Assembly (NCBI GenBank): GCA_964592485.1
Contig: CAZQEY010000001.1
Span: 95,935 to 159,934 of the forward strand
Reading direction: 5' to 3'
Source of the DNA: an uncultured Planctomycetales bacterium
GTDB taxonomy: Bacteria; Omnitrophota; Gorgyraeia; Gygaellales; JAHJCI01
DNA: 64,000 nucleotides
Below the pieces are notes generated by a model. That model saw only the letters and a list, made by a program, of their open reading frames with translations. It was not told the origin of the DNA and did no database searches. The translations under genes were made by a program, and so were the position numbers. Positions 1-64,000 of this stretch are shown in pieces (the first letter of the stretch is position 1; every line of letters begins with the position of its first letter).

Positions 1-686
1 TACCCTTTAACGATATCCTCAATATACACGTAATCACGAGTAAATCTGCCGTCGCTTCTTATGATAAATTGTTTTCGTTTTAAAATACTATAGATAGCAT
101 CAGGAACTAATCTCGAGAGGTTCCAATCACCTGGTCCATATATATTTCCGCACCGCGTAATGCATACGGGTACTTGATAGGTATGATAATAAGCATTCGC
201 CAGAAGGTCAGCACAACTCTTTGAAACATCATAAGGGTGAATTCCCTGTAACGGCATCTCTTCCGTATAGGGTAGAATTTCTTGAGAACCATAAGCCTTA
301 TCACTAGAGGCGATTATCAAACTCCTTAGAAATATTTTGCTTCTGCAAGATTCTAAAATATTCCAAGTTCCTTGAATATTAGATTTAAATGTTTTAACAG
401 GGTCTTTATTTGCCTTGCTTACAATAGCCTCCGCAGCAAGGTGGAATATAATCTGCGGTTTATATTTGTTAATTAGTCTTTTTATAAGAGTCAAATCAGA
501 AACATCTCCTTTTATACACACTATAGAAACCCGCAATCCCTTTAAGACAGACCTTGGCCTTTGAAATACGCGGTCTAATCCGATAACATAAGCTGACTTA
601 TTTATTAAAATCTTAGTCAGCCATGAACCCAAAAAACCTTCATAACCAGTAATGAGTACCCTCTTATTTTTCCAAAAGCTATTCAT
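1..686 (-). CDS. rfbG: CDP-glucose 4,6-dehydratase, N-terminal ~228 aa; the 3' end runs off the window start. Not in the ORF track because it is truncated.
   Basis: The reverse complement from an ATG at 686-684 translates to MNSFWKNKRVLITGYEGFLGSWL...IIASSDKAYG...YDVSKSCADLL. This has the Rossmann GxxGxxG and YxxxK of extended SDRs and closely resembles the CDP-glucose 4,6-dehydratase N-terminus. The ATG lies directly after the rfbF stop. Confidence 0.8.
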   Translation of the reverse strand, partial: MNSFWKNKRVLITGYEGFLGSWLTKILINKSAYVIGLDRVFQRPRSVLKGLRVSIVCIKGDVSDLTLIKRLINKYKPQIIFHLAAEAIVSKANKDPVKTFKSNIQGTWNILESCRSKIFLRSLIIASSDKAYGSQEILPYTEEMPLQGIHPYDVSKSCADLLANAYYHTYQVPVCITRCGNIYGPGDWNLSRLVPDAIYSILKRKQFIIRSDGRFTRDYVYIEDIVKG

Positions 687-1481
687 CTACCACGCCTTCC
701 AAGGTGCTTTTGCCCTTTCCCAAAGGTCTGTTAATAAATTCAATTCTCTCTGTGTATCCATACATTGCCAAAACCCAGTATGGACATATACCGAAAGCTG
801 CAGTTGTGCACTCAGTTTCTCTAAAGGCTCTCTTTCTAAAGAACAATCATCTTTATTGGTTAAATATTGAAAAAACTTCCTGTTAAAAACAAAGAAACCT
901 CCATTAATAAAACCTTTGGTAGTTTGAGTCTTTTCGCTAAAAGTTACCACCTTATTGCCCTTTATTATAAGCTCTCCAAAACGCGAAGAGGGATGTACGG
1001 CTGTAATAGTACCTATTTTCTTTCGCGCCATATGAAGATTAAACAATTCTTTAATATTTATATCTGCAACGCCATCGCCATAGGTAACCATAAATGTATC
1101 TTCCCTAATATATTGCTCTATCCTCTTTATCCTTGCACCTGTTTGGGTATTTTGTCCAGTATCTACAAGGGTTACTTTCCAGTCTCTTTCTAAATGATTG
1201 CTATGAAATTCAATTTTACCCTTATCTCCTAAACTAATTGTAAAATCATTATTCATTGCCTCATAATTTAAGAAATACTCCTTGATTTTTTCTCCTTTAT
1301 AACCTAAACAGAGAATAAAATCTTTGAATCCACAATGTGCATACATCTTCATTATGTGCCATAAGATAGGCCTGCCACCGATTTCCACCATTGGCTTTGG
1401 TTTAAATTCTGTCTCTTCCTTTAACCTCGTTCCTCTACCACCACATAAGATTACCACTGAACATTTTTCTATTTTGCTCAA
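687..1481 (-). CDS. rfbF: glucose-1-phosphate cytidylyltransferase
   Basis: MSKIEKCSVVILCGGRGTRLKEETEFKPKPMVEIGGRPILWHIMKMY matches the RfbF N-terminus (GGxGTRL, KPMVEIGGxPILWHIMK). The 264-aa size is typical. Confidence 0.9.
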   Translation of the reverse strand: MSKIEKCSVVILCGGRGTRLKEETEFKPKPMVEIGGRPILWHIMKMYAHCGFKDFILCLGYKGEKIKEYFLNYEAMNNDFTISLGDKGKIEFHSNHLERDWKVTLVDTGQNTQTGARIKRIEQYIREDTFMVTYGDGVADINIKELFNLHMARKKIGTITAVHPSSRFGELIIKGNKVVTFSEKTQTTKGFINGGFFVFNRKFFQYLTNKDDCSLEREPLEKLSAQLQLSVYVHTGFWQCMDTQRELNLLTDLWERAKAPWKAW

Positions 1482-1561
1482 TTTGCCTCCTTTAAAGCTA
1501 TTAAACTATGATATTCTTCAAGATATCCTTAAAAGTTAGACCGTTATCTGAAGACAACCTT

Positions 1562-3265
1562 TCAATTACTTTTTCTATTACTCACTAAATAACACGAATA
1601 TGTATTATTAAAGTATACTTGAGGATACGGCAAATTGAAACGCTTTGGTAGTGCTATATAATCTAATTTCCAAGGCGCATTTTCAATTATGCGTTTGATT
1701 CCTAAATTATCCCCCTGAGTAATAAGCTGAATTAAGTTGTTAATAAATTCTACTCTTTTTAAGTGTTCTTGTTTGAATTCATAATTTAAATAAAAGCTCG
1801 CATAATCACCAGTCAACATTGGCCTACAAGAGAATCCTCTAAAAGTGTAATTATCAGAAAGGTAACCGTAAGAATCTATTAAACAAATAAAGACACTATC
1901 CGTCTCTGTATTCTCTTTTGCCCACACTTGACAATCATAGTGATCTCTTTCAAGATTAAATACAATTAAAGGAAAGAATGGCGACCTTAATTTATAAGAT
2001 TTTAAAGTACTATTTCCCGCTTTTATAAAAAGAAAAATAATAACAGCCATATAGACCCACGCGGCTAATGGTGTTAACTTCATCTTAATTGAAAGCTTCT
2101 TATTATGATATACAAACAAGTAAGCAATAATGATGCATACAATATATATTAAAACCGATATTTTAAAATTAGGAAAAAAAGCCAGGGTAAAGAGCCCAAT
2201 GATACATATGTTTCGAATTGCTTTTTTTTGAGCTTTGACTGTACATTTGAGTAAAACACCACCAATAACTATAATTGAAATAATTAGAGGATATACCATA
2301 CTCCTGGAAAAGGTTAATGTCATCATCTCGGGTATAGGGATTAATTTATACAAATAGGATGTATATAGGATTCCAAAAAGAACTACAACAATCGATGTCG
2401 AATACATATAATATAGTTTACGACGCTGGATAGCATTTTTTAAAAATCTTACTGACCACACTCCTCCGCAGAAGATGAAGAAGAATTTCAAAAAATCAGT
2501 CCAGCAGTTAGCAAACATATCAATTTTACCACGCTCTCTTAGAATAATCCCGTTGCATAGTTCTAAACGTTGTGCATAAGCAAGTGTACTACCAACACTT
2601 TGAGATCGATAAAGAATAATAATAAGTGCACTTATAAAAACAAAAAAGCCTATAATAGCAACCCTGTTGAATTGAATTCTTTTGAAAGAGAAAAGTAAAT
2701 AAACCAGAACCATAATGAGGATAAACCAAGAAGACTTAAGATGCAATGGCATAGCTATGATTGCAATAAGAAACACTGATAACAATAATTTGTTTTTAAA
2801 ATAATAATAAAGAGCTGCTGCAAGAATAGGCATTGCTACTACTGTTTGAGAAAAGGTATGTTGATAGACTAATTGAGATGTTATCGTGAAAATAGGATAG
2901 TCATACAAAAATAATAATAAGACTATGAGACCAACGTTATATTCTTTTAAATCCGGAAATAATGCCCTTGCAATTTTAAATATGAAATAAATGTGTGTCA
3001 GGCTTGCAATAATATAAAGGAAAAAAATAAAATAGGTATTAGATGGCAATTTTCCAAATATTTTTAATAAGGGATATAAATAACTAGTTGATGCAATTAT
3101 TGAATTATGTACATACATATCATTAGGAAAGTATGTTGGGTCCTCAAATAAGGAAAAAATAGGCATATAGGCAGCACTGTTAACCCCTGAAAATCGAACA
3201 AAACATAAAAGCAAGCCATAAATTAAAATATATAAGTATATAATTTTATCTCTGCCTTCTGACAT
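1562..3265 (-). CDS. polytopic membrane protein (about 12 predicted TM segments plus a C-terminal soluble domain); putative GT-C-like glycosyltransferase or glycan polymerase
   Basis: Long hydrophobic stretches run through the first ~400 aa, with an acidic ED pair in the first extracytoplasmic loop (FSLFEDPTYF). No specific family is recognised. Confidence 0.5.
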   Translation of the reverse strand: MSEGRDKIIYLYILIYGLLLCFVRFSGVNSAAYMPIFSLFEDPTYFPNDMYVHNSIIASTSYLYPLLKIFGKLPSNTYFIFFLYIIASLTHIYFIFKIARALFPDLKEYNVGLIVLLLFLYDYPIFTITSQLVYQHTFSQTVVAMPILAAALYYYFKNKLLLSVFLIAIIAMPLHLKSSWFILIMVLVYLLFSFKRIQFNRVAIIGFFVFISALIIILYRSQSVGSTLAYAQRLELCNGIILRERGKIDMFANCWTDFLKFFFIFCGGVWSVRFLKNAIQRRKLYYMYSTSIVVVLFGILYTSYLYKLIPIPEMMTLTFSRSMVYPLIISIIVIGGVLLKCTVKAQKKAIRNICIIGLFTLAFFPNFKISVLIYIVCIIIAYLFVYHNKKLSIKMKLTPLAAWVYMAVIIFLFIKAGNSTLKSYKLRSPFFPLIVFNLERDHYDCQVWAKENTETDSVFICLIDSYGYLSDNYTFRGFSCRPMLTGDYASFYLNYEFKQEHLKRVEFINNLIQLITQGDNLGIKRIIENAPWKLDYIALPKRFNLPYPQVYFNNTYSCYLVSNRKSN

Positions 3266-3309: not shown

Positions 3310-4155
3310 CTAAAGTGGCTCTAAAATAAAGAAATTAAAATAGCTTCCCTCATTTTTATGAGTCAAACCCAATGGTTTAAAATAATTTATAGGAAAATTA
3401 TCGCAAAACCTCAAAAATGCATAACTTATTATCTTTTTAAAATCAGCAGTAGAAAACTCAAAGACATGGCAATCAACATCCCTTACCGAAGACTCCGACC
3501 ACCCTCCCTTATTAATATCCAGCATTTTTAGATTCTTCCAATAATCCAAATCATAAATAATTGTTCTTTCTACATATGGTATGGACAAAAATATCCTTTT
3601 TTTTGTCACTCTCCTTAATTCTTTTAGGGCTTGGACTGGATTTGGTATATGTTCGATACACTCAAAACAAAAGGTGTATTCAAAAGACTTATCCCCAAAG
3701 GGAAGCTGCTCGATATCTCCTACCTCTGCCTCTATACCACTTTTCTTTATAAATTCTACCACGTCAGGATTGATATTTACTGAAAGACCTCTGCGCCTCA
3801 TCGCACGCAAAAGAATCCCACTAGTATCTCCGATATCAGCTACAGCTATATTATTATCAAAAAGCTGAGGATAATATTCTAAAAAAAACTTGTATATCCG
3901 ATAATATCTTATTTGATTTATAAACAAGTCTGGGTGTTCCCTGGTTTGCCTCATGGGTTCGTATACGTAATGATTATTTAAATCTTCCTGAGGAAATAAT
4001 TCTTGAATTTCCGGCGTGGAATTAATTAACATATGGAGCTTTTCATAAAGCCTACTAATATATATATTGTATAGTCTCTTTATAAATGAAAACACAGAAC
4101 TGGGAAGCATCCGCTTTACAATAGATTTTATGTTCATAATTTCATTAATTAACAA
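3310..4155 (-). CDS. class I SAM-dependent methyltransferase
   Basis: Motif I-like VADIGDTSGILL, followed by the acidic and hydrophobic motifs (ECIEHIPNP) typical of Methyltransf_11/23. Confidence 0.65.
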   Translation of the reverse strand: MLINEIMNIKSIVKRMLPSSVFSFIKRLYNIYISRLYEKLHMLINSTPEIQELFPQEDLNNHYVYEPMRQTREHPDLFINQIRYYRIYKFFLEYYPQLFDNNIAVADIGDTSGILLRAMRRRGLSVNINPDVVEFIKKSGIEAEVGDIEQLPFGDKSFEYTFCFECIEHIPNPVQALKELRRVTKKRIFLSIPYVERTIIYDLDYWKNLKMLDINKGGWSESSVRDVDCHVFEFSTADFKKIISYAFLRFCDNFPINYFKPLGLTHKNEGSYFNFFILEPL

Positions 4156-5645
4156 TACTTCTGCTGATAGATATCTCTAAGTTGTTTAAATTTCGCATTT
4201 CCCACTTCATCAAATTTCTCAGCCCTGTTGATTTCGTTCCAGAACTGCTTAGACATCTTTACATACATCACAAAAGTTCGCATAAGACCTCGAATCTCTT
4301 GGTTTAATAATTGTGGCATCTCAAGAATGCTGCCCAGTGTCACACATATCGGTAAGGGCAAATCTTCTCTGATAAATCCATTTTTTTTACAGACTTCATA
4401 CAATTCAGTACCCTTGAAGGGATAAAATGCATAAGCATTACAGCTATCAAAAATAGTCTTTCTATTTAACTCAATAGTATCAAATATCAATTCCCTTGTT
4501 TCAAAAGGAAAACCAATTATATTATTTACCGTCAAAGGAATACCAGCCTCATTTATTATTTTAGTAGCTTCTATAAATATTTCATTATCAAACTCTTTCT
4601 TTAATACCCTTTTTCTAAACTCAGGATTACCATGTTCAAGACCTATTGACATTCGATGGCAACCTACACTTTTAAGTCGCCTCATTCTATCTGGCTTAAC
4701 AGTTTCGGGCCTGGTCTGAATCCAAAAGGGGAGTTTAAACTCTGAATACATCTCTATAAATTCATCAAATTCCCTGTCAGACATTACCAGGAAAGTATCG
4801 GAGGCAAAATATATATATTCGGCCTGCCATTTATCAATCAGGAATTTTAGTTCTTGATGTATTTTTTTTATGCTTTTTTTCCTGAAAAAATTGTGTACAT
4901 TATTGTTCCTATATAGCTTGGCAATAGTCGGAGAATTGCAGAATGTGCAATGAAAAAGGCAACCCCTATTGGTCTCCATAGGAACCATTCTATATACCCC
5001 TCCTGCCATTGGCCGATATAATCTGCGAGAGTCAAAAACACTGTAGTCAGGTATAGGTAGAGAGTTTAAATCTACAATTCCATTCAAAGCATTCCTAATA
5101 ATTCTGCCATCGTTTTTCTTTACCCATAAATTCTTAATTCTCGTATAATCTCTTGCTTCAGCTAAACTTTCGCATAACTCTAATAAGGCAATCTCGCCTT
5201 CCCCAACACATACGAAGTCAACAGAAGGATTCGCTATAGCCTCATCAGGAGCTACAGTAGGAAATACCCCTCCTGCTACTACCGGTATTTTATAATCCTC
5301 AATGGCCTCCAACATTCTAGACCCCATATGATACGTCCCTTCCAATGCCGATAGAGCAATAAGATTGGGTTTAAAATCTTCTACTTTTGCTCTAAGATCC
5401 TGGAACATATCTCCTTTGTTCGAGTAAATACCCCTTTCCTGAAAACTAAAAGGTTTTACTTGCAAATGTTCTAACTTTGCTAAATCAGAATTAATCGTTT
5501 CTGTTTCATAAAATGTGCTATCAAATACATCAACTTCAATCCTGCGCTCTTTCAATATAGCAGCCATAATGCCTATAGCAATAGGGGGTGGATTAAGAAA
5601 AGGCTCATTAGGATAAAGAAACAGGACTTTAAATTTAGAATTCAC
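4149..5645 (-). CDS. cobalamin (B12)-binding radical SAM enzyme (class B rSAM)
   Basis: N-terminal B12-binding-like Rossmann region, then a CxxxCxxC cluster motif (RGCLFHCTFCNS). It is a paralog of the rSAM at 35075-36571 (shared IKNLWVKK, CVGEGE and DLNSLP blocks). Confidence 0.85.
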   Translation of the reverse strand: MNSKFKVLFLYPNEPFLNPPPIAIGIMAAILKERRIEVDVFDSTFYETETINSDLAKLEHLQVKPFSFQERGIYSNKGDMFQDLRAKVEDFKPNLIALSALEGTYHMGSRMLEAIEDYKIPVVAGGVFPTVAPDEAIANPSVDFVCVGEGEIALLELCESLAEARDYTRIKNLWVKKNDGRIIRNALNGIVDLNSLPIPDYSVFDSRRLYRPMAGGVYRMVPMETNRGCLFHCTFCNSPTIAKLYRNNNVHNFFRKKSIKKIHQELKFLIDKWQAEYIYFASDTFLVMSDREFDEFIEMYSEFKLPFWIQTRPETVKPDRMRRLKSVGCHRMSIGLEHGNPEFRKRVLKKEFDNEIFIEATKIINEAGIPLTVNNIIGFPFETRELIFDTIELNRKTIFDSCNAYAFYPFKGTELYEVCKKNGFIREDLPLPICVTLGSILEMPQLLNQEIRGLMRTFVMYVKMSKQFWNEINRAEKFDEVGNAKFKQLRDIYQQKYC

Positions 5646-7645
5646 CCTTCTACGCTCCTGAGGAGATTATCATAGTATTGTTTGTCGTCTAAATAAATAT
5701 TCAAATATTTATTTAAGAATTTTCTATAACCATTCCCGTCAATATCTCGCCTATTTTGCATAATACGAATCACAGTATTAAATAACTCAACTGGATTATT
5801 TATATATATTGCTAAATTACTAAGCTTAGATAAAGGGCAAAGGTCAATTATACTATAAAGAGAGGGAACGATAACCGGAATACCATTGTAAATTGCCCAG
5901 AAAACCGAAGAAGACTCCTTTACAATCATTGCTTTTGATTCCGGTATAATCTCTTGCAAACGCTTATTTGTAAACTTAAATACCTTGCTGTTTATATCCA
6001 ACCCCATCCTCCTAGCCACCTTCTGGATAGGGTCGCAAGGATGCGTCTTAAGTAAGATATCGAAGTTTAAATTCTTGTCATTAAAGGCATGAAATAATAA
6101 CAGTAGCATTTCTCGATTCTCAAGCGGACAAAGAGAAAACGGCACGACAACCTGACCCTTTCTCCTTTCCTTTATGGTTAAGATATCTGGAGATTCTCTA
6201 AAATCATGAAATCTAAATCCGCCTAAAATAAATAATTTTTCTCTAGGCCAACAACCCTGAAGAAGAATATCTCTGGTGATACTCCCTACACAACCCAAAT
6301 AATCTGGGGCAGGACAATATTTTACATAGTCATTTCCCCTTAAATCCTCTGGATGGTCGAAATAATTAAGCATTAACAACGGCACTATTGAATGTTGCAT
6401 CCCAACACATGTAATATCTCCTCTTTTTGCACAGGCAACAATTAATGCTTTCTCCCAGGATTGCATCTCTGCAAAATAAAGCACTTTTATATATTTGGGG
6501 AGATCTTCAATAATGTTTGAAAATGCTATGTAATTGCTAATTCCCCAAATAAGTATTTTGCCCATAAAAGATGACAGAAAATCCTTCTTAAGTATTTCCC
6601 ATAAATTTATCCTGAGATTAGTAACAGGATCCCGATAAACAAAGTGAGCTCTATATCTATTTAGATTTATCAATGCCCTGACAGATAAGAGAAAATAGGT
6701 AAAAATAATTCTACTGAATTCTTTATATCCTAACCATTCTTCCAGTATAAAAAATTTACTGTTTTCTTTAACCCTCTTGGCTATCTTCAAAGTCTTAGAC
6801 CAATTATATGAGTTTATAGGAACGAACATCCCCAGCCATGCTACTTTGTTTTTATGATTACTCTCTATAGAATTTTGAAGAGAGCCATAAGCCAGATTGA
6901 CAAATCTTCCATCTTTAAGTTTTGTTTCATCAACAGAAGGAAAAGCAGTGACAGCCAAAATCTTGGAATCACGGAGATATTCTCTTTGATTTTTAAAGCG
7001 CCTCTCTAACCTCTTAGCGCCAATGGCTCTTTGTAATAGTGCCAGAATAAATTTTGCCACTCTTAACATTTCTATGAATATTAATTTAATCTCTCCCGTA
7101 TAGCCATGATAACTTCTGTAGCCAGAAATAGATACGAAATCATCTAGTCCAGAAGCAGATAATACATTGCCAATTACACCATTTTTTCTATTTAACCATA
7201 TTTGTTCACACCCTAATTCATTTTTTAAATGTAATATAGTCAAAATTTTGCAAAACTTAGTGAAAGCAGAGCTTTTATAAGGATTCTTTTCTGCAATTAA
7301 GGAAAACCACCATACAGAAAATTCACCAGAAGGATAAGTGAAATATCTTTTTAAATTTATACCATTAAAAAAATCCTTTTCTCCGAGTTCATGAATAAAG
7401 TTTATATATTCCTGTTTTAACTCAAACGCCTTTTTATTAAACCTATATATAAAATCTACTAACTCAGCTTCTATAGTAGTTTTTTTCTCTAAAGATTTCT
7501 TAAGCTGTTGGGCAAGTCTATCCGCATTATATTCAATCGGACATAAGAAAACTTCCTCTATATTATTATTATCGCCAGAAATCCTCCTCAAAACTTCAGT
7601 CTCTCTGTCTCTTCCTGTGAGTACCAGTAAAATTCTTTTGCCCAT
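5642..7645 (-). CDS. large hypothetical protein with a TagF-like (CDP/CMP-donor GT-B) C-terminal domain
   Basis: C-terminus has an HP motif (KTHPCDP) and ...MIVKESSSVFWAIYNGIPVIV. This resembles the catalytic His-Pro and D-Y-S-S...P-V-I blocks of TagB/TagF glycerophosphotransferases and the HP motif of bacterial sialyltransferases. Its 4-nt overlap with the downstream rSAM suggests co-translation. Confidence 0.45.
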   Translation of the reverse strand: MGKRILLVLTGRDRETEVLRRISGDNNNIEEVFLCPIEYNADRLAQQLKKSLEKKTTIEAELVDFIYRFNKKAFELKQEYINFIHELGEKDFFNGINLKRYFTYPSGEFSVWWFSLIAEKNPYKSSAFTKFCKILTILHLKNELGCEQIWLNRKNGVIGNVLSASGLDDFVSISGYRSYHGYTGEIKLIFIEMLRVAKFILALLQRAIGAKRLERRFKNQREYLRDSKILAVTAFPSVDETKLKDGRFVNLAYGSLQNSIESNHKNKVAWLGMFVPINSYNWSKTLKIAKRVKENSKFFILEEWLGYKEFSRIIFTYFLLSVRALINLNRYRAHFVYRDPVTNLRINLWEILKKDFLSSFMGKILIWGISNYIAFSNIIEDLPKYIKVLYFAEMQSWEKALIVACAKRGDITCVGMQHSIVPLLMLNYFDHPEDLRGNDYVKYCPAPDYLGCVGSITRDILLQGCWPREKLFILGGFRFHDFRESPDILTIKERRKGQVVVPFSLCPLENREMLLLLFHAFNDKNLNFDILLKTHPCDPIQKVARRMGLDINSKVFKFTNKRLQEIIPESKAMIVKESSSVFWAIYNGIPVIVPSLYSIIDLCPLSKLSNLAIYINNPVELFNTVIRIMQNRRDIDGNGYRKFLNKYLNIYLDDKQYYDNLLRSVEG

Positions 7646-11789: not shown

Positions 11790-11796
11790 TCTATAT

Positions 11797-20132: not shown

Positions 20133-20143
20133 AAAAAGCTAAT

Positions 20144-29649: not shown

Positions 29650-29656
29650 CGTATCC

Positions 29657-55810: not shown

Positions 55811-56158
55811 TCAGAGATTTTTTTGATTATTGCTCTTATTATTTAAATAAGCCTCCCATTCCCTTCTTAGATTTTCGTACTCCTGTTGTTTTCTCTCTAA
55901 AAAATGCAAGGTAAGTTCTGCCTTCTGTTTTATGCCTCTTGAGGTCAAATTATAGGAAATTCTGCTTAATTTATGGTTTTTATGAGAAAAGTTCTTTATC
56001 TTGACAAATCCCTTTTTGATAAGTTCTTTGATGAGATAGTTGGTTTTTCCTAAAGATATGCCTAAATGAGCGGATAAATCTCTTTGGGTAGGACTATCGT
56101 TTAAGGATAAAATACGTAGAATATTAAGAATATCCTCTTTAAGGGTATGTTCATCCAT
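55811..56158 (-). CDS. winged-helix transcriptional regulator, EPS-locus-associated MarR-like
   Basis: A small 115-aa protein. The block PTQRDLSAHLGISLGKTNYLIKELIKKGFV is an HTH recognition region, and the C-terminus has a coiled coil. Its position inside the polysaccharide locus is typical of EPS-associated MarR-type regulators. Confidence 0.55.
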   Translation of the reverse strand: MDEHTLKEDILNILRILSLNDSPTQRDLSAHLGISLGKTNYLIKELIKKGFVKIKNFSHKNHKLSRISYNLTSRGIKQKAELTLHFLERKQQEYENLRREWEAYLNNKSNNQKNL

Positions 56159-57744: not shown

Positions 57745-58650
57745 TTACTTTGCTTCAAGAAAATGTTTAAGCGCCTCCTGCCAGGGTCTCAACTTTAAGT
57801 TAAACGCACTCATCAACTTGGAATTATCGAGCAAAGACATCCGCGGCCTCCGGGCCGGGCGATTACTTTCTTTAGAGCTGACTGGCAAGACTTGCGTTTT
57901 TAGCTGCTTAAGTGAGAGTATCTGTCTTGCAAATTCATACCAGGAGCAACTGCCGCTATTACTGATATGATAGATCCCATAGATATCCGGTGAGCGGGAG
58001 CTGAGAGTTGAGAATAAAGCCTTGATTGCTCTAGCTAAATCAATAGTATAAGTTGGTGAACCAACCTGGTCATTGACCACTTGAAGCGCTTCATTTTCTT
58101 TGACTTTCTGTAAAACAGCAGTAACAAAATTCTTCCCTTTGGGACCGAATAGCCAACTGGTGCGTAGGATATAATATCTCTCTAAGCGGTTCTGGACAAT
58201 CCTTTCGCCCTCTAATTTTGACTGGCCATAAATATTAATCGGATTACAGGTATCAGTCTCTATATAGGGCTTATCCTTCTTCCCATCAAAGACATAATCG
58301 GTGCTGATATAAATCAGGGTAGCCCCGAACTCCTCTGCTACCTGAACAACATTTCCGGTGCCCTGCGCATTGACAGCAAAGGCTTTCTCTGAATTCAGCT
58401 CACAACCATCAACATCAGTATAGGCGGCAGTGTGGATAATAAAATCTGGCTTAATCCCGTTAAGTGCGGTAACTAAACTATCTTTATCCGTTATGTCGCA
58501 TTGAATAAAAAATCTGGTATCCAGTACCGAGTATCCAGTATCAAGTAGGTCTAAACCGAAAACTTCATAGTCTTCAGCAAGTGTCTCACAGAGACTCGAG
58601 CCAAGCATCCCCTTTGAACCGGTGATTATGACTTTAGTTTTCTCCACCAC
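57745..58650 (-). CDS. rmlD: dTDP-4-dehydrorhamnose reductase
   Basis: ISTDYVFDG, YGQSKLEGE and RTSWLFG are the RmlD hallmarks. The apparent start is a GTG. Confidence 0.85.
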   Translation of the reverse strand: MVEKTKVIITGSKGMLGSSLCETLAEDYEVFGLDLLDTGYSVLDTRFFIQCDITDKDSLVTALNGIKPDFIIHTAAYTDVDGCELNSEKAFAVNAQGTGNVVQVAEEFGATLIYISTDYVFDGKKDKPYIETDTCNPINIYGQSKLEGERIVQNRLERYYILRTSWLFGPKGKNFVTAVLQKVKENEALQVVNDQVGSPTYTIDLARAIKALFSTLSSRSPDIYGIYHISNSGSCSWYEFARQILSLKQLKTQVLPVSSKESNRPARRPRMSLLDNSKLMSAFNLKLRPWQEALKHFLEAK

Positions 58651-59582
58651 TGCTGATTATCTTGATACCACCTGATTGTTTCTTTTAGTGCCTGTTCAAA
58701 TTGATATTGCGGTTGCCAGCCAAGAGTCCTTATCCTGCTGCAGTCCAAACTGTAGCGGCGGTCATGGCCAAGACGATTCTTTACATATTCAATCAGGCTG
58801 CCCGGTTTATCCATTATTTTTAATATAAGTTCAGTGAGCTCTAAATTGGTTTTTTCATTTCCAGCGGCTACGTTATATATTTGACCAATTTCACCTTTAT
58901 GAAGAACCAAATCTACTGCCCTGCAATTATCCAGCACATACAGCCAGTCACGCACATTAAGTCCGTCTCCATACAAGGGAAGGCTCTTATTCTTCTGGGC
59001 ATTGGTGATAAATAGAGGGATAACCTTTTCCGGATATTGAAAAGGACCGAAATTATTACTGCTTCTTGTAATTGCTACCGGCAGATTATAAGTGACAAAA
59101 TAAGAACGTACTAAATGGTCGGCTGCAGCCTTGCTGGCTGCGTAAGGGCTGTTTGGCCTTAAGGGGCTTTCTTCGGTAAAAGAACCCCTTTCAATTGAGC
59201 CGTATACCTCATCCGAGCTAATCTGGATATATTTACTGAGACTGTATTTTTTAGCCGCTTCCAGAAGAACATGGACCCCATAGACATTAGTACGGACGAA
59301 ATCGGAAGCATCCGTGATTGACCTGTCTACATGGGTCTGGGCCGCAAAGTTTATTATCGCATCGCAATTCCTGGCTATATCATTTACAATGCCGGAATCG
59401 CAAATATCTCCCTTGACGAATTTGTACCCGGGGCTGTTCTCTATGTCCTTCAAATTGTTGAGGTTCCCGCAGTAAGTAAGCTTGTCGAGATTAATTATTC
59501 TATATTCAGGATATTTATTTAAAATATGGCGGATAAAATTAGAACCGATAAAACCCGCCCCTCCCGTAACTAGAATCCTCAT
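58626..59582 (-). CDS. rmlB: dTDP-glucose 4,6-dehydratase
   Basis: MRILVTGGAGFIGSNFIRH..YRIINLDKLTYCGN matches the RmlB N-terminus. YAASKAA catalytic motif. Confidence 0.9.
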   Translation of the reverse strand: MRILVTGGAGFIGSNFIRHILNKYPEYRIINLDKLTYCGNLNNLKDIENSPGYKFVKGDICDSGIVNDIARNCDAIINFAAQTHVDRSITDASDFVRTNVYGVHVLLEAAKKYSLSKYIQISSDEVYGSIERGSFTEESPLRPNSPYAASKAAADHLVRSYFVTYNLPVAITRSSNNFGPFQYPEKVIPLFITNAQKNKSLPLYGDGLNVRDWLYVLDNCRAVDLVLHKGEIGQIYNVAAGNEKTNLELTELILKIMDKPGSLIEYVKNRLGHDRRYSLDCSRIRTLGWQPQYQFEQALKETIRWYQDNQQWWRKLKS

Positions 59583-60322
59583 CTTAATCTTGCGTTATTC
59601 TGTTTCAATAATTTCCTGCGCACAAGCGTTGCGGCCCTATATAGAGTTTCCGGCAAGCCGCAGTCAGTCCAAAAGCCCTCAAGAATATCATAATAAAGCT
59701 GCCCCCTCTTAAGATATGTATTGTTGACATCGGTTATTTCCAATTCGCCTCTCCGGGAGGGCTTCAGGGTGCGGATGAAGTCAAAAACCTGGCTATCATA
59801 CATATATATTCCGGTGACGATATAATTTGATTTGGGCCTTTTTGGTTTTTCGGAAATTGTCATGATTTTTCCGCCCTGAAGTTGAACCACACCAAATCTC
59901 TCCGGGTCAGGAACCTCTTTAATTAGAATTCTCGCCCCCCCAGCCTGTCCCGAGAATCTTTCTACATATTTTTTTATTGATTTCTCGATAATATTATCTC
60001 CCAAAATAACCACAATCTTCTGACCTTCAGCAAAATGCTCAGCTAAACCTAAGGCATCGGCAATCCCCTTTTCTCCCCGCTGATAAGTATAGTTAATATG
60101 TTTCAAGCCAAATTCCTCGCCGTTGCCTAAGAGTCTTAAGAAATCTCCGGCGTTGTTTCCACCGGTAACAATCATAATGTCCTTTATCCCCGCATCAACC
60201 AGAGTCTGAATGGGGTAATATATCATCGGCTTGTTGTAAACACATAAAAGGTGTTTGTTGGTAATCCTTGTCAATGGCTCAAGCCGCCTGCCTAAACCAC
60301 CGGCTAAAATTACGCCCTTCAT
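59579..60322 (-). CDS. rmlA: glucose-1-phosphate thymidylyltransferase (short form)
   Basis: MKGVILAGGLGRRLEPLT...NKHLLCVYNKPMIYYP matches the RmlA N-terminus. I placed the start at ATG 60322 with an AAGGAAGGA RBS; the track start is a GTG 21 nt upstream. Confidence 0.8.
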   Translation of the reverse strand: MKGVILAGGLGRRLEPLTRITNKHLLCVYNKPMIYYPIQTLVDAGIKDIMIVTGGNNAGDFLRLLGNGEEFGLKHINYTYQRGEKGIADALGLAEHFAEGQKIVVILGDNIIEKSIKKYVERFSGQAGGARILIKEVPDPERFGVVQLQGGKIMTISEKPKRPKSNYIVTGIYMYDSQVFDFIRTLKPSRRGELEITDVNNTYLKRGQLYYDILEGFWTDCGLPETLYRAATLVRRKLLKQNNARLR

Positions 60323-60324
60323 GC

Positions 60325-60777
60325 CTAATCCTTCCTTTCCCACTTATAACCTATCTTTTCATCAAAGGAATCCAATCTATATTCGTCAGGATTATTAAGA
60401 TTGTAAGGCTTAGTGACGGTATTTATCACAATTGCCTCAGAATCGCCGACATTCTTGAATCCATGATAGACTTCTTTCGGAACGTGAATCAATTTCGGTT
60501 CAGCGGGACTAATCACAAAATCATTTATTTCGCCGAAGGTAGATGAATTGACCCGTGCATCATATAAAGCAAGGATAATCTTTCCGGATACGCAAGTGAA
60601 ATTATCCGACTGTAATTTGTGATAGTGCCAGGCTTTTATTATTCCCGGATAAGCAGTGGTCATATATACCTGACCGAACTTCTCGAACATTTCATCATCG
60701 CAGCGCAGAATCTCCATTAGTCTGCCTCGATTATCTGGAATTACCTTTAATACCTTGACCTTAACCCCTTGAATCAT
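60325..60777 (-). CDS. rmlC: dTDP-4-dehydrorhamnose 3,5-epimerase
   Basis: VYMTTAYPGIIKAWHYHK...HGFKNVGDSEAIVIN is the RmlC cupin signature. I placed the start at ATG 60777; the track's 45-aa N-terminal extension is unlike protein and overlaps the upstream gene. Confidence 0.8.
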   Translation of the reverse strand: MIQGVKVKVLKVIPDNRGRLMEILRCDDEMFEKFGQVYMTTAYPGIIKAWHYHKLQSDNFTCVSGKIILALYDARVNSSTFGEINDFVISPAEPKLIHVPKEVYHGFKNVGDSEAIVINTVTKPYNLNNPDEYRLDSFDEKIGYKWERKD

Positions 60778-61720
60778 TATTACCCCTTCCCTTAAGGTTC
60801 TGCTTAAACCAGGCGATTGTCTTCTTAAGCCCTTCCTCCAAAGATACTTTTGGCTGCCAGTTAAGTAATCTTTTGGCTTTGGTAATATCCGGCTGCCTTT
60901 GCTTAGGGTCATCCTGAGGCAAGGGTAAGAATTTAATTTTGGATTTGGAGTTAATCAAATCGGTTATCTTCTTTGCCAACTCCATAACAGTAAATTCACA
61001 TGGGTTGCCTAAGTTTAGTAAACCAGAATAATCGACGTGCATAAATTTAATAATCCCTTCGACTAAATCATCTATATAACAAAAGGAGCGTGTCTGAAAG
61101 CCATCACCATAAATAGTAAGGTCATCATTATTTAATGCCTGGGAGATAAGATTTGAAACTACCCGACCATCATCCATCCGCATGAAAGGCCCGTAAGTAT
61201 TGAATATTCTAACAATTTTTATATATATATTATGTTGCCTCTTATAAGCAAAGGCCATCGCTTCAGCTGCACGCTTTGCTTCGTCGTAGCAAGAGCGAGG
61301 CCCAATAGGATTTACATTGCCAAAATATTCCTCTGGTTGAGGATGAATTAACGGGTCTCCATAGATCTCTGAGGTAGAAGCAAGAAATAATTTAGCACGT
61401 TTTTCCTTAACGATCCCTAAGCAATTATGCGTGCCTAACGTTCCCACCTTTAAGGTTTTTATGGGATATTCTAAATAATCTTTAGGAGAAGCTGGCGAGG
61501 CAAAATGCATAACCCAATCCAAATCTTCATCAATATACAAAGGCTGAGAGATATCATGGGTTATCAATTTAAAATTCGACTGGTTTAATAAATCCTTAAT
61601 GTTTTCTTCTCGACCGGTGATAAAATTATCCACACAGATAATAGAATTCCCGCCGATTAACAGTTTTTTGCACAAATGCGAGCCAATAAAACCTGCGCCT
61701 CCAGTGATTAAAATATTCAT
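60761..61720 (-). CDS. UDP-glucuronate decarboxylase (UDP-xylose synthase)
   Basis: MNILITGGAGFIGSHLCKKL...VDNFITGREENI...TSEIYGDPLIHPQPEEYFGNVNPIGPRSCYDEAKR is near-canonical for UXS. Confidence 0.9.
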   Translation of the reverse strand: MNILITGGAGFIGSHLCKKLLIGGNSIICVDNFITGREENIKDLLNQSNFKLITHDISQPLYIDEDLDWVMHFASPASPKDYLEYPIKTLKVGTLGTHNCLGIVKEKRAKLFLASTSEIYGDPLIHPQPEEYFGNVNPIGPRSCYDEAKRAAEAMAFAYKRQHNIYIKIVRIFNTYGPFMRMDDGRVVSNLISQALNNDDLTIYGDGFQTRSFCYIDDLVEGIIKFMHVDYSGLLNLGNPCEFTVMELAKKITDLINSKSKIKFLPLPQDDPKQRQPDITKAKRLLNWQPKVSLEEGLKKTIAWFKQNLKGRGNNDSRG

Positions 61721-61771
61721 ATTTCTATATTACCATGCGGAGTATTGTGCGAAATTCTGTTTCAAGCAAGG

Positions 61772-63076
61772 TTAGGCACGACCAATCGATTTGTAAATAA
61801 AGCCGAGTTTAAACATCTGTCTCGGCTCAAAGATGTTTCTTCCATCGACAATAATCGGCTGGCGCAATAATCTTTTTATTCTGGCTAAGTCAAGATGCCG
61901 AAATTCCTCCCATTCAGTCATAATCAGGAGACAGTCACTGTTCCTCGCCACTTCATAAGGGCTTTGGCAAAATTTTATATCCTTCAGTTCCTTTTTTGCC
62001 TGTGGCATTGCTTGTGGGTCATACGCCTTTATCCTTGCCCCCTCATCCTGCAGCATCCTAATAACATCTATGGAAACAGAAAAGCGTATATCATCGGTAT
62101 TTGGCTTAAAGCTTAAACCGAGGATACCGATTGTCTTTCCTGAAATAATCCATATTGCTTCCTCGATCTTTTTTAGCAAAAGTTGTTTTTGTTCTCTGTT
62201 TATTTTTGCTACCTCTTTAAGTATCCCGAAATCATACCCGGCTTTCTTAGCGATATAAATAAATGCCTCTAAGTCTTTTGGGAAACAAAACCCACCAAAA
62301 CCACAACCAGCATCCAGAAACGCCCGACCAATGCGCCTATCCAGTCCCATACCGTCAGCTACCTTGACCACATCCGCACCTACCCTCTCACAAAATTGAG
62401 CAACTGCATTAATAAAGGAAATCTTGGTGGCTAAAAAGGAGTTTGAGGCATGCTTAATCATCTCCGCCGTCTTAATATTAGTAATCACAATTGGTGCCTT
62501 AATTGGCCTAAATAGTATGCACATAATCCTCTCTGCCCTTTTATCATTAACACCCAATATAATACGGTCGGGATGCAGAGTATCTTTGATGGCTGAGCCT
62601 TCACGCAAAAACTCAGGGTTAGAAACAATACTGAACTCTACCTTGCGCCTGTGCTTATTGTGCATCAGGATTGTATGTCGGATTCGTTCTCCGGTTTCTA
62701 CCGGCACAGTACTTTTGCTCACGATTATCTTATATTCTTTCATATTCTGAGCAATCCGGCGCGTTACATTTTCCACTGAAGATAAATCCGCACTCCCATC
62801 TTCCCGGGGAGGCGTACTGACACAAATAAAAATAATTAAGGATTTATTCACTAGGTCAGGCATACTGGAGGTAAAGATTAATCTTTTTGCTTTAAGATTC
62901 TTCTTAACCAGCATTTTAAGTCCGGGCTCATAAATCGGGACAATGCCTTTTTGGAGTTTTTTAATCTTTTGTTGGTCGCTATCCTGACAGATTACCCTAT
63001 TTCCTAAATCAGCAAACACTGCCGCGGTAACCAAACCTACATGGCCTGCCCCAATAACTCCAATTTGCTGCATCAT
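61772..63076 (-). CDS. ugd: UDP-glucose / UDP-N-acetylhexosamine 6-dehydrogenase (UDPG_MGDP_dh family)
   Basis: IGVIGAGHVGLVTAAVFADLGNRVICQD NAD-binding N-terminus, catalytic-Cys region GFGGFCFPKD, and a C-terminal UDP-binding domain. Confidence 0.85.
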   Translation of the reverse strand: MMQQIGVIGAGHVGLVTAAVFADLGNRVICQDSDQQKIKKLQKGIVPIYEPGLKMLVKKNLKAKRLIFTSSMPDLVNKSLIIFICVSTPPREDGSADLSSVENVTRRIAQNMKEYKIIVSKSTVPVETGERIRHTILMHNKHRRKVEFSIVSNPEFLREGSAIKDTLHPDRIILGVNDKRAERIMCILFRPIKAPIVITNIKTAEMIKHASNSFLATKISFINAVAQFCERVGADVVKVADGMGLDRRIGRAFLDAGCGFGGFCFPKDLEAFIYIAKKAGYDFGILKEVAKINREQKQLLLKKIEEAIWIISGKTIGILGLSFKPNTDDIRFSVSIDVIRMLQDEGARIKAYDPQAMPQAKKELKDIKFCQSPYEVARNSDCLLIMTEWEEFRHLDLARIKRLLRQPIIVDGRNIFEPRQMFKLGFIYKSIGRA

Positions 63077-64000
63077 TTAGCTCCTTTTAAATTATGTCTA
63101 AACCACTCGACAGTTTTCACCAACCCCTTCCGGAAACTGGTCTTAGGCTTATAGCCAATAATCTTTTTTGCTTGCGAGATATCTGCAAGGGTCTTAAGTA
63201 CATCCCCTGGCCTGGATGGATGATAAATAGGCTGAATATTCTTTTTCATAATTTTATTGAGAAGACTAACTAACTCCAGAATAGTCTTACCATCGCCATT
63301 GGCAATGTTTAAGATTGCCCATTTAACTCTGCCCCTGCACGTAGGAGCAGAGTTAAGGTTGGGCGCATTTGCAGCTAAAAGATTTGCCTCGACAACATCG
63401 TCAATATAGGTAAAATCGCGTGACTGCTTACCTGTGCCATATATAGGAGGAGACTCATCGTTTAAGAGACAATGAATAAACTTGGGGATAGCTACTGCAT
63501 ATTCATCGTCTAATGCCTGGCGCGGACCAAAGACATTGAAGTAGCGCAGACAAACCGTAGACAAACCATAGTTTTGCGAATACACGCGACAGTAATGCTC
63601 GCCAGCTGACTTGGTCAGAGCATAGGGTGAAATAAGACGAGGTAGATCTGTTTCCTTTTCAGGAAATTTCTTTGTTTCGCCATAAATAGAGCTTGAGGAG
63701 GCATAAATAAAGCGTTTAATTTTCTGTTGCCTGGCAGCTTCAAGCATATTCAGGGTGCCATTGATATTTACTTCATTATATTCAAAGGGATTATTTAAAG
63801 ATTTCGGCACAGAGCGAAGAGCTGCCTGGTGAAGGACAACATCAATATCCTGGCAGGCCTTCTGGCAAGTGGGCAAATCGCGGATATCACCTCTTATTAG
63901 TGTATAGCGGTTAGCTGATGACGGATAGTTATTTACAAAAGATAGGTTTTCTTCCTTACCGGATGAAAAGTTATCCAGAACCACGATGGAATGCCCGCTC
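63073..64000 (-). CDS. UDP-N-acetylglucosamin(uron)ate 4-epimerase (WbpP/TviC/CapD-like), C-terminal ~309 aa; the 5' end runs off the window end
   Basis: The frame continues upstream of the track 'start', which is a GTG, to position 64000 (...SGHSIVVLDNFSSG...). Blocks VLHQAALRSVPKS, NINGTLNMLEAAR and YASSSSIYG match WbpP/TviC. Confidence 0.8.
   Translation of the reverse strand, partial: SGHSIVVLDNFSSGKEENLSFVNNYPSSANRYTLIRGDIRDLPTCQKACQDIDVVLHQAALRSVPKSLNNPFEYNEVNINGTLNMLEAARQQKIKRFIYASSSSIYGETKKFPEKETDLPRLISPYALTKSAGEHYCRVYSQNYGLSTVCLRYFNVFGPRQALDDEYAVAIPKFIHCLLNDESPPIYGTGKQSRDFTYIDDVVEANLLAANAPNLNSAPTCRGRVKWAILNIANGDGKTILELVSLLNKIMKKNIQPIYHPSRPGDVLKTLADISQAKKIIGYKPKTSFRKGLVKTVEWFRHNLKGAK

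Follow-up and report, generated by a model that had tools for sequence, protein, structure and literature searches.

The 64 000-nt stretch analysed here (the window; contig CAZQEY010000001.1, positions 95 935–159 934) probably makes up most of a super-locus, 72 kb or more in length, for the biosynthesis of a surface glycan. It belongs to an uncultured anaerobe most closely related to Omnitrophota metagenome-assembled genomes (MAGs). An earlier note, made from the letters alone, had proposed a glycan-assembly locus, and family searches confirm this, with nucleotide-sugar genes, candidate transferases and an ABC exporter. The same note had expected two, possibly three, ulosonic acids activated with cytidine monophosphate (CMP), which agrees with a pseudaminic acid (Pse) module, a legionaminic acid (Leg) module, a third module with an aldolase and a KdsB-like gene, and four CTP_transf_3 genes. 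Genes that need a label are called g02, g05 and so on; related loci and contigs are numbered with an L.

Layout and extent of the locus

All 60 genes lie on the minus strand, with no switch, as had been claimed: 59 open reading frames (ORFs) span 687–63984 and a cut ORF occupies 3–686, according to the ORF listing and an independent stop-to-stop scan. In the direction of transcription the genes fall into six blocks: precursor supply (64000–56212), GDP-mannose epimerase and Pse genes (55774–43725), exporter and Leg genes (43673–25754), g22 to g17 (25665–16483), the aldolase module and g05 (16314–5642), and a last block (5645–1) that runs on into L001. The coding fraction of the window is 0.974 and the widest intergenic gap is 168 nt. 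Genes overlap at 25 of 59 junctions, 10 times by four bases and three times by one base (TAATG). Three overlaps had been given as examples of start–stop overlap; those at 9276–9279 and 18453–18456 indeed read ATGA, whereas 5642–5645 reads GTGA, with a GTG start. Eleven plus-strand ORFs reach 100 aa, each nested in a minus-strand gene with a strong family match. The longest, 15895–16398 (167 aa), is probably spurious because the cupin gene that it overlaps (15889–16314) holds Pfam support.

Co-orientation of 60/60 genes would arise by chance with a probability of ~2e-18 at 50:50, and of ~2e-6 even given an 80% strand bias. Because related loci are equally unidirectional, the one-strand layout is a property of such loci and not an accident. 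There are no pseudogenes among the window ORFs, whose family matches span nearly full profiles; the prospect that they might be mostly pseudogenes, raised in the earlier note as grounds for abandoning its reading, is not borne out. Scans of the window for tRNA genes and Rfam families gave no match, no cobalamin riboswitch and nothing that interrupts the array.

G+C content (GC) runs from 0.31 to 0.42 along the window, and GC skew is negative throughout. Values of 0.30–0.34 are found in membrane-protein and transferase genes (1562–3265, 18453–22284, 23599–25665) and of 0.42–0.43 in the rmlB/rmlD/ugd/legI genes (57745–59582, 31454–32509). Contrast of this sort between genes is typical of mosaic glycan loci.

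Promoter and terminator scans gave counts at the level of shuffled sequence and no intergenic terminators, apart from one perfect sigma-70-type consensus, TTGACA-17-TATAAT (12/12), at 56167–56195 (−), the only such match in the 60 kb scanned; from base composition, chance alone would give ~0.15 perfect matches over the window. It sits in the 53-nt gap 56159–56211 between ManC and a MarR-like gene, on the coding strand directly upstream of the latter. Because of this placement and its perfect consensus, a long transcription unit probably begins here.

The locus continues past the low end, as predicted. Logan assembly contig L001 (run SRR14802574) is 100% identical to window 1–4209 and runs on for 8 kb, which brings the locus to at least 72 kb. 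Its added genes all have the same orientation: a complete CDP-glucose 4,6-dehydratase-like gene, a B12 radical S-adenosylmethionine (SAM) gene, an RmlD-like short-chain dehydrogenase/reductase (SDR), a methyltransferase, a pair of GT2 glycosyltransferase and B12 radical SAM genes, a second GT2 gene and a third polytopic membrane protein (10940–12238). An exact 40-mer and an exact 49-mer from the window had no match in two large contig collections, one of genomes and one of metagenomes.

Relationship to Omnitrophota is indicated by several genes. The closest relatives of PseI (63–75% identity) come from Candidatus Omnitrophota MAGs and a few labelled Planctomycetota, the named close relatives of g22 from Omnitrophota and one Firestonebacteria, and GC and unidirectional layout agree with Omnitrophota loci. 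An origin from a Leptospira rfb locus, prompted by low GC, unidirectionality and families named after LIC genes, was rejected: the nearest homologs belong to Omnitrophota, Planctomycetota-like and other MAGs.

Ulosonic acid modules

Pseudaminic acid module. Apart from PseB the Pse pathway is represented, firmly by PseC and PseI and less surely by a PseG–PseH fusion that scores below cut-off and a candidate for PseF.

53190..53633 (−), RmlC/FdtA-like cupin, candidate epimerase/isomerase heading the module; Pfam 6e-11 and 5e-7
51719..53152 (−), CBS-domain + SDR fusion, 477 aa, candidate non-canonical PseB replacement; Pfam Epimerase 4e-41, CBS 9e-6; best PDB match 6vo6, 9e-41
50501..51697 (−), PseC aminotransferase; TIGR03588 510 bits, above cut-off 424
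49594..50442 (−), CTP_transf_3 cytidylyltransferase g45, candidate CMP-Pse synthetase; Pfam 3e-31; no equivalog reached
48919..49563 (−), SAM methyltransferase; Pfam Methyltransf_11 3e-15
47660..48856 (−), WbuX-family N-acetyl sugar amidotransferase, copy 1; TIGR03573 334 bits, above cut-off 203
47013..47639 (−), HisH-like glutamine amidotransferase, copy 1; Pfam GATase 5e-20
46239..46997 (−), HisF-like cyclase subunit, copy 1; Pfam His_biosynth 3e-66
44747..46252 (−), PseG–PseH fusion (UDP-sugar hydrolase + GNAT N-acetyltransferase), 501 aa; TIGR03590 149.5 bits vs 153.6 and TIGR03585 58 vs 93, both below cut-off
43725..44750 (−), pseudaminic acid synthase PseI; TIGR03586 470 bits, above cut-off 340

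No window protein exceeds 81 bits on the PseB equivalog TIGR03589 (cut-off 408), and the cupin and CBS–SDR genes occupy its position. Since PseB is lacking in this sense and the same cupin/CBS–SDR/PseC trio recurs in metagenome locus L100 at 51–68% identity, the cupin and CBS–SDR proteins may provide a non-canonical entry into the Pse pathway, as their sequences and placement suggest.

Legionaminic acid module. The Leg pathway is likewise represented: genes for LegB, LegC, NeuB/LegI, NeuC/LegG and NeuD/LegH score above cut-off and are contiguous at 29657–38757, with g31 as a candidate for LegF. Two B12 radical SAM genes are inserted in the module, and a second WbuX/HisH/HisF triad comes after it. 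The amidino (N-acetimidoyl) role of these triads is contained in the TIGR03573 family definition and in what is known of PseA/WbuXYZ.

37759..38757 (−), LegB NAD-dependent 4,6-dehydratase; TIGR04180 495 bits, above cut-off 475
36600..37775 (−), LegC aminotransferase; TIGR04181 512 bits, above cut-off 420
34001..35005 (−), GFO/IDH/MocA oxidoreductase of Leg-type module; Pfam; same family adjoins CTP_transf_3 in L085
33297..34004 (−), CTP_transf_3 cytidylyltransferase g31, candidate CMP-Leg synthetase; PseF-like 160 bits, below cut-off 206
32494..33297 (−), PtmA-like SDR; NF050062 142 bits, below cut-off 350
31454..32509 (−), NeuB-type nonulosonic acid synthase (LegI role); TIGR03569 483 bits, above cut-off 400
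30294..31457 (−), hydrolysing nucleoside diphosphate (NDP)-sugar 2-epimerase NeuC/LegG; TIGR03568 454 bits, above cut-off 236
29657..30277 (−), NeuD/PglD-family N-acetyltransferase (LegH role); TIGR03570 223 bits, above cut-off 161
28597..29685 (−), CBS + nucleotidyltransferase, PtmE-like sugar-1-phosphate nucleotidylyltransferase; Pfam NTP_transferase 5e-39, CBS 1e-11
27696..28568 (−), HisF-like subunit, copy 2; Pfam 2e-64
26989..27699 (−), HisH-like amidotransferase, copy 2; Pfam 2e-17
25754..26950 (−), WbuX-family N-acetyl sugar amidotransferase, copy 2; TIGR03573 345 bits, above cut-off 203

In related loci this CTP_transf_3 gene (g31) is kept directly before the amidotransferase triad and g22.

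Aldolase module. A third set of genes includes a pyruvate aldolase and a KdsB-like CMP-ulosonate synthetase.

15889..16314 (−), small cupin; Pfam Cupin_2 7e-9
15120..15869 (−), FabG-like SDR g15 of the aldolase module; Pfam; 34% ortholog in Asgard locus L090
14339..15067 (−), CTP_transf_3 cytidylyltransferase g14, third copy; Pfam 7e-17; 70–75% orthologs come after g17 orthologs in L088, L095 and L096
13518..14339 (−), HpcH/HpaI class II pyruvate aldolase g13, candidate for forming a 3-deoxy-2-ulosonate; Pfam 6e-35
12739..13521 (−), KdsB-like CMP-ulosonate synthetase g12; NF009905 302 bits, above cut-off 255; 53% ortholog in L090
11797..12732 (−), SAM methyltransferase (Methyltransf_23); Pfam 2e-22
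10839..11822 (−), SDR epimerase, GalE/heptose-epimerase-like
9938..10846 (−), D-2-hydroxyacid dehydrogenase g09, PGDH/glyoxylate-reductase-like; Pfam 2e-51; 49% ortholog in L090
9276..9938 (−), cyclase/arylformamidase-family hydrolase; Pfam Cyclase 3e-19
8641..9303 (−), HAD phosphatase; Pfam HAD_2 5e-19
7685..8572 (−), SDR, 295 aa

The aldolase g13 has 7576 homologs at E<=1e-40, with top matches 64–79% identical; its top relatives come from Omnitrophota, anammox bacteria, Thermodesulfobacteriota, the candidate phyla radiation (CPR), Hadarchaeum and Promethearchaeota. Contig L090, from the Promethearchaeota (Asgard), holds the aldolase together with orthologs of the KdsB-like (53%), 2-hydroxyacid dehydrogenase (49%) and SDR (34%) genes, and also a methyltransferase, a Capsule_synth-like 651-aa protein and Wzx. 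Because the orthologous set sits together there, the aldolase, KdsB-like, dehydrogenase and SDR genes form a conserved quartet. Its most economical reading would be a pyruvate-aldolase route, independent of phosphoenolpyruvate (PEP), to a CMP-activated 3-deoxy-2-ulosonic acid.

Candidate transferases and export

Four large proteins, g37, g22, g17 and g05, each placed just after an ulosonic-acid module, are the best candidates for ulosonic-acid transferases, to judge from position, fold and family resemblance.

41805..43673 (−), ATP-binding cassette (ABC) exporter g38, fused transmembrane and nucleotide-binding domains (MsbA/HepA/PglK type), candidate lipid-linked-glycan flippase; Pfam ABC_membrane + ABC_tran
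40190..41755 (−), KpsC/Capsule_synth-like g37, candidate CMP-ulosonic-acid transferase; PF05159 32 bits, above cut-off 20; KpsC 8fuw 5e-5
23599..25665 (−), TagF/TarL-like GT-B protein g22, 688 aa, candidate CMP-Leg-derivative transferase; predicted TagF/TagB-type fold
21532..22284 (−), small GT2 glycosyltransferase g20, 250 aa; Pfam Glycos_transf_2 4e-30; 57% ortholog in L088
18453..20132 (−), EpsG-family (Wzy-like) polytopic membrane protein g18, ~10 transmembrane (TM) segments; Pfam EpsG 31.1 bits vs cut-off 30.1, E 1.8e-7; hydropathy
16483..18456 (−), LIC12162-family protein g17, 657 aa, candidate second ulosonic-acid transferase; C-terminus weakly matches BFO_1060 family, 3e-6
5642..7645 (−), TIGR04326 (O_ant_LIC13510) family surface-carbohydrate protein g05, 667 aa, candidate transferase; 2.8e-57, 194 bits, below cut-off 250
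3310..4155 (−), SAM methyltransferase; Pfam
1562..3265 (−), polytopic membrane protein g02, 567 aa, 10–12 TM, candidate polymerase, ligase or GT-C; hydropathy

The KpsC (8fuw) match of g37 covers the catalytic region of the beta-Kdo (3-deoxy-D-manno-octulosonic acid) transferase KpsC, and a g37 homolog lies directly upstream of a homolog of the radical SAM gene g36 (below) in Methanoregula locus L085. For g22 no Pfam, NCBIfam or PDB sequence match was found. Its AlphaFold model, made from 26 homologs (predicted local distance difference test, pLDDT, 85.5; predicted template modelling score, pTM, 0.86), has a fold of TagF/TagB type, as in GT-B transferases that use CDP or CMP donors. We had taken g22 for a tiny lineage-restricted family with 30 homologs, a view overturned by a profile search that found 2154 representatives. 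The 50% ortholog of g17 in L088 carries the new Pfam family PF27859 (LIC12162). An HP motif occurs in the corresponding C-terminal region of g17 (residue 516) and g05 (residue 535). The four proteins show no detectable relationship to one another; a common superfamily for g05, g17 and g22 was dropped, as BLAST E values lie above 0.03 and the g22 profile finds neither g17 nor g05. Sequence searches of PDB with g05, g17, g22, g18 and g02 gave nothing useful, a relaxed Pfam scan of the unassigned proteins nothing new, and g02 has no match in Pfam, NCBIfam or PDB.

Export could go through g38, a fused ABC_membrane + ABC_tran half-transporter inside a glycan locus, as in PglK, Wzk and MsbA routes. 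Its NCBIfam scores (HepA 378, MsbA 335 and PglK 212 bits) are all below the cut-offs, which for PglK is 1000. Since the PglK, MsbA and HepA equivalog cut-offs are not reached, its substrate can only be inferred. Homologs of g38 adjoin the g18 family in L088, L089, L092 and L094, and g18 orthologs (48–56%) adjoin the exporter in the first three of these. The separate ABC2_membrane permease and Wzt/KpsT ATPase of the Wzm/Wzt and Kps pathways were not found, g38, a fused type-I exporter, being the only ABC protein; a KpsC-like protein (g37) is present.

No initiating polyprenyl-phosphate phosphoglycosyltransferase (Bac_transf, Glycos_transf_4) has a Pfam match among the 60 window ORFs and the L001 genes (72 kb together), in line with the earlier note. 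That note had also reported no polymerase/flippase set. For Wzx (full-length Polysacc_synt/MATE-like) this stands, the only matches being spurious ones of Polysacc_synt_C on cupins, and so it does for the chain-length regulator Wzz, with no match among the window ORFs; it does not hold in full, given the candidate flippase and polymerases, namely the PglK/MsbA-type exporter (41805–43673), the EpsG (Wzy-like) protein (18453–20132) and the second polytopic protein, of 10–12 TM (1562–3265). The other polytopic candidates beside g18 are g02 and L001 10940–12238, neither in any family. As a whole the window does not match what defines a Wzx/Wzy locus of the classical kind, a Wzm/Wzt locus or a Maf-type flagellin island.

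The last of these deserves a closer look, since Pse and Leg modules coexist in the window with acetamidino-forming and PtmA/PtmE-like genes, and the flagellar glycosylation locus of Campylobacter likewise unites Pse and Leg pathways with acetamidino and PtmA/PtmE genes. In an island of that type, Pse and Leg derivatives would be added singly to a flagellin or pilin filament protein and not become part of a lipid-linked glycan, and a pilin gene does lie near a g36 homolog in L087. However, the 60 ORFs include neither a Maf/PF01973 or FlmG-type protein nor any gene for a flagellum or pilus, and a lipid-linked heteroglycan is indicated by the ABC exporter, the EpsG-like protein, the GT2 genes and the pathways for neutral sugars. 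We consider a filament glycosylation island very unlikely.

Cobalamin radical SAM enzymes

The locus holds six cobalamin radical SAM genes and five SAM methyltransferase genes. All six B12-binding proteins have an N-terminal B12-binding domain and one CxxxCxxC motif, the features of class B (cobalamin-dependent) radical SAM enzymes. Four are in the window.

38773..40236 (−), B12-binding radical SAM g36; Pfam; CxxxCxxC present
35075..36571 (−), B12-binding radical SAM g33, paralog of 4149–5645 and of L001 4522–5997; Pfam; 34% homolog in Methanoregula L085
20144..21535 (−), B12-binding radical SAM g19, paired with GT2 g20; Pfam; BchE 252 and HpnJ 232 bits, below cut-offs
4149..5645 (−), B12-binding radical SAM; Pfam; CxxxCxxC present

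The g36 family has 3466 homologs at E<=1e-30, with top matches 60–70% identical and top relatives in Omnitrophica, Deltaproteobacteria, CPR phyla and Methanoregula. In 3/3 independent contexts examined, the homolog lies inside an ulosonic-acid locus: in Methanoregula (L085) it follows the g37 homolog with a g33 homolog alongside, in a CPR genome a LIC12162-family protein and Wzx come after it, and in a 2.6-Mb bacterial contig it adjoins a WbuX triad, NeuB, a formyltransferase, NeuC and a deacetylase. Beside the g36-family gene, L085 and the CPR locus L086 also have a short NeuB-like synthase, a Hydrolase_3 phosphatase, an Fe-dependent alcohol dehydrogenase (Fe-ADH) and an aminotransferase, a set that resembles the 8-amino-Kdo (Kdo8N) pathway. 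Among PseI-centred loci, 13/80 have B12 radical SAM genes, and 10 of these 13 are among ~21 Omnitrophota/Planctomycetota-like loci.

The GT2 and B12 radical SAM pair g20/g19 (20144–22284) is paralogous to L001 7722–9801 (~31% identity for each gene) and occurs again in L088. It is like the hopanoid pair HpnI/HpnJ in outline only, HpnJ being among the best NCBIfam matches. The domain layout is that of class B radical SAM methylases, but all scores are far below equivalog cut-offs and the context here is nucleotide-sugar and ulosonic-acid biosynthesis.

Characterised class B radical SAM methylases come mostly from antibiotic pathways (GenK, Fom3, TsrM). If the product were instead an aminoglycoside-like compound or some other glycosylated natural product, this would account for the many cobalamin radical SAM methylases, and there is weak NCBIfam similarity to PhpK, KedN5 and AprD4. 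We consider this highly improbable: no scaffold-forming enzyme (polyketide synthase, nonribosomal peptide synthetase, cyclitol synthase) appears among the window family matches, and many phyla have these radical SAM families in nonulosonic-acid loci that also encode Wzx or ABC exporters.

The literature searched yielded nothing that ties radical SAM enzymes to Pse or Leg, no characterised member in that context, and nothing that links Omnitrophota to nonulosonic acids. According to a 2026 preprint, mass spectrometry detected CMP-activated C10 ulosonic acids whose origin is unexplained in Magnetospirillum, and CMP-nonulosonic acids with +14 Da in Ca. Kuenenia (bioRxiv 10.64898/2026.04.20.719630). 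C-methylation by the g36-type family would be an attractive explanation for the source of higher-carbon ulosonic acids. We offer, tentatively and as less likely than not, a joint proposal: the g36 and g33 families, embedded in the Leg and Pse modules, would C-methylate nonulosonic acids or the 6-deoxy-hexosamine precursors of these (at the terminal C9 methyl, for instance), lengthening the backbone as a route to C10 acids; g22, g17 and g37 would be three new CMP-ulosonic-acid transferase families; and through the quartet both Bacteria and Archaea would reach a new CMP-activated 3-deoxy-ulosonic acid without PEP.

Precursor and neutral-sugar genes

The remaining genes serve mostly common precursors and neutral sugars.

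63073..64000 (−), SDR 4-epimerase, TviC/WbpP-like (uronic-acid-type NDP-sugar); Pfam Epimerase 2e-53; TviC 240 bits, below cut-off; N-terminus cut by window end
61772..63076 (−), UDP-glucose 6-dehydrogenase Ugd; three UDPG_MGDP_dh Pfam domains, 4e-64, 8e-35 and 2e-35
60761..61720 (−), UDP-glucuronate decarboxylase UXS, giving UDP-xylose; full length to human UXS1 2b69
60325..60912 (−), RmlC-like cupin (dTDP-4-dehydrorhamnose 3,5-epimerase family); Pfam dTDP_sugar_isom 3e-16; start codon uncertain
59579..60343 (−), RmlA-like short glucose-1-phosphate nucleotidylyltransferase; TIGR01207 240 bits, below cut-off 361
58626..59582 (−), dTDP-glucose 4,6-dehydratase RmlB; TIGR01181 473 bits, above cut-off 365
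57745..58650 (−), dTDP-4-dehydrorhamnose reductase RmlD; TIGR01214 339 bits, above cut-off 224
56212..57633 (−), ManC, mannose-1-phosphate guanylyltransferase/mannose-6-phosphate isomerase; TIGR01479 460 bits, above cut-off 373
55811..56158 (−), MarR-like winged-helix regulator, 115 aa; Pfam HTH_24 4e-11, MarR_2 and MarR 7e-6
54791..55774 (−), GDP-mannose 3,5-epimerase, giving GDP-L-galactose/L-gulose; Arabidopsis GME 2c59
53696..54766 (−), CDP-tyvelose 2-epimerase-like SDR, NDP-sugar 2-epimerase candidate; E 1.6e-39 to 9rl0, 7e-37 to 1orr
22333..23454 (−), SDR, tyvelose-2-epimerase-like, paralog of 53696–54766
687..1481 (−), glucose-1-phosphate cytidylyltransferase; TIGR02623 347 bits, above cut-off 300
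1..686 (−), CDP-glucose 4,6-dehydratase-like SDR; Pfam; TIGR02622 231 bits, below cut-off 278; C-terminus cut, complete in L001 3524–4492

Nearly all the sugars named in the earlier note are recovered here. For rhamnose, RmlB and RmlD pass their NCBIfam cut-offs, and all four enzymes of the dTDP-L-rhamnose pathway RmlABCD are present, RmlC on Pfam support only. Xylose and uronic acids are represented by Ugd (Pfam) and UXS (E 5.5e-117 to human UXS1), and an L-hexose from GDP-mannose by ManC and GDP-mannose 3,5-epimerase (E 1e-100). The proposed CDP-deoxyhexoses correspond to a CDP-hexose route, with the glucose-1-phosphate cytidylyltransferase and the CDP-glucose 4,6-dehydratase-like gene. The longest ORF form of the RmlC-like gene overlaps the UXS gene by 152 nt; the Logan gene call is 130 aa, yet the Pfam match starts at residue 47 of the long form. 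The SDR paralogs 53696–54766 and 22333–23454 are 30% identical, and homologs of both come after the g22 homolog in L093.

Conservation in relatives and weighing of the reading

PseI-centred loci elsewhere have only parts of the window in common, and the contexts of g22 homologs are far more telling. Locus L088 (Omnitrophota MAG GCA_043820815.1) has on one strand NeuB, NeuC, a PglD-like gene, an aminotransferase, an SDR, a B12 radical SAM gene, another SDR, a cytidylyltransferase and a WbuX-like gene, followed by g22 (51%), GT2 (57%), a methyltransferase–GT2 gene, B12 radical SAM (43%), g18 (56%), the ABC exporter (37%), g17 (50%) and g14 (70%). The same skeleton is found, again on one strand, in L089, L092, L094, L095, L096 and L100, while the remoter L109, L111 and L113 have a g22-like gene and exporter, then the aldolase, KdsB-like gene and SDR. 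The core block is thus kept and the peripheral modules are shuffled, a pattern that answers the earlier concern that the block might not be conserved in relatives. On contig JBDRDJ010000031.1, which holds both L003 and L088, a PseI locus and a g22/Leg locus lie ~28 kb apart in the same orientation, a hint of a comparable 70-kb unidirectional super-locus with another module order.

Shuffling also bears on how many products such a locus makes. Several independent pathways for two or three glycoconjugates may have been added one behind another on the same strand, for example one for an O-antigen or a capsule, one for a nonulosonic-acid-capped glycan of general protein O-glycosylation, and one for the housekeeping supply of nucleotide sugars. 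A glycan island of this kind would fit the consensus promoter and regulator that separate the rml/ugd/manC block from the rest, the three distinct polytopic membrane proteins (g18, g02 and L001 10940–12238), the module order and content shuffled among relatives, as in the PseI and g22 loci of JBDRDJ010000031.1, and the GC steps between modules from 0.30 to 0.43. It fits less well with the tight packing (25 overlapping junctions, no intergenic terminators), the single exporter in 72 kb, and the equal numbers of activated-sugar routes (~7) and candidate transferases (~7). We see an island as a serious possibility, though a somewhat doubtful one; it overlaps with the super-locus explanation and does not exclude it. 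The earlier note assumed a single glycan, but the evidence leaves equal room for two or three glycoconjugate pathways placed next to each other.

Several points weigh against a super-locus for one lipid-linked glycan in a relative of Omnitrophota. As seen, the assembly route is incomplete because 72 kb contain no initiating phosphoglycosyltransferase, Wzx or Wzz; nor is the acceptor encoded there, and the radical SAM chemistry is predicted only. The exporter g38 falls below every equivalog cut-off, and the EpsG match of g18 is only 1 bit above threshold. Module order differs between relatives, which is just as compatible with a mosaic of separable pathways as with one glycan. Kinship with Omnitrophota, in which we have moderate confidence, rests on glycan genes, which transfer laterally.

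Proposed mechanism

In the super-locus reading, transcription would probably yield a small number of very long transcripts, of which one would begin at the consensus promoter before the MarR-like gene. Cytoplasmic enzymes would make about seven kinds of activated sugar, and two nonulosonic acids would be converted to N-acetimidoyl forms by the WbuX/HisH/HisF triads. The B12 radical SAM enzymes would tailor nonulosonic acids, most likely by C-methylation, and the SAM methyltransferases would O- or N-methylate. A heteroglycan would be built on a polyprenyl-phosphate carrier: an initiating transferase whose gene lies elsewhere would start the chain, and some seven transferases (g37, g22, g20, g17, g05 and the two GT2 proteins of L001) would assemble it. 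The PglK/MsbA-type ABC exporter would then flip the lipid-linked glycan, as PglK and Wzk do, and the EpsG-like or other polytopic proteins would polymerise it or ligate it to an acceptor, which could be lipopolysaccharide (LPS) core, a capsule anchor or a surface protein.

Comparison with known systems and significance

A surface-glycan locus rich in nonulosonic acids is a familiar category and not a new principle. What is undescribed is the gene combination, the core order of TagF-like gene, GT2, B12 radical SAM, membrane protein, ABC exporter and LIC12162 gene, the radical SAM families associated with nonulosonic acids, and the aldolase quartet.

In Leptospira the rfb genes are arranged unidirectionally. 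Leptospira rfb loci measure up to ~121 kb, have a MarR-family gene at the start and contain rfbABCD (PMC4758666). The window is alike in large size, MarR gene, rfbABCD and low GC, and the families of g05 (TIGR04326, O_ant_LIC13510) and PF27859 (LIC12162) are named after Leptospira genes. It differs in that its nearest relatives are Omnitrophota, Planctomycetota-like and other uncultured lineages, in the lack of a Wzx/Wzy/Wzz block, and in having Pse, Leg and aldolase modules and B12 radical SAM genes inside the locus.

In Tannerella forsythia, a TagB-like transferase encoded directly after the nonulosonic-acid genes adds a Pse or Leg derivative as terminal sugar, with experimental support (PMC5420450). 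Here g17 weakly matches the BFO_1060 family, g22 has a TagF/TagB-type fold, and an amidino-modified nonulosonic acid is likewise expected; the window transferases, however, have 657–688 aa rather than ~445 aa and belong to other families, and the locus is several times larger, with radical SAM genes. Campylobacter jejuni shares CMP-Pse and CMP-Leg pathways with LegB/C/H/G/I (and LegF, for which the window has a candidate), PtmA/PtmE-like genes, acetamidino formation and a PglK-like fused exporter, here a candidate flippase. Unlike it, the window lacks Maf, a PseB equivalog and PglB/PglC, and its exporter scores 212 bits against the 1000 required for PglK.

For Omnitrophota and neighbouring uncultured anaerobic lineages we know of no characterised cell-surface chemistry. 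In one such lineage a glycan rich in sialic-acid-like sugars would take up 72 kb or more of the genome, with enzymes that recur in CPR bacteria, methanogens and Asgard archaea. The locus offers clonable candidates for Pse- and Leg-type transferases, for the origin of extra carbon or methyl groups in ulosonic acids, and for the making of CMP-activated keto-deoxy sugars by way of a pyruvate aldolase. Phage and host recognition in these partly host-dependent nanobacteria is probably influenced by sugars of this kind at the cell surface.

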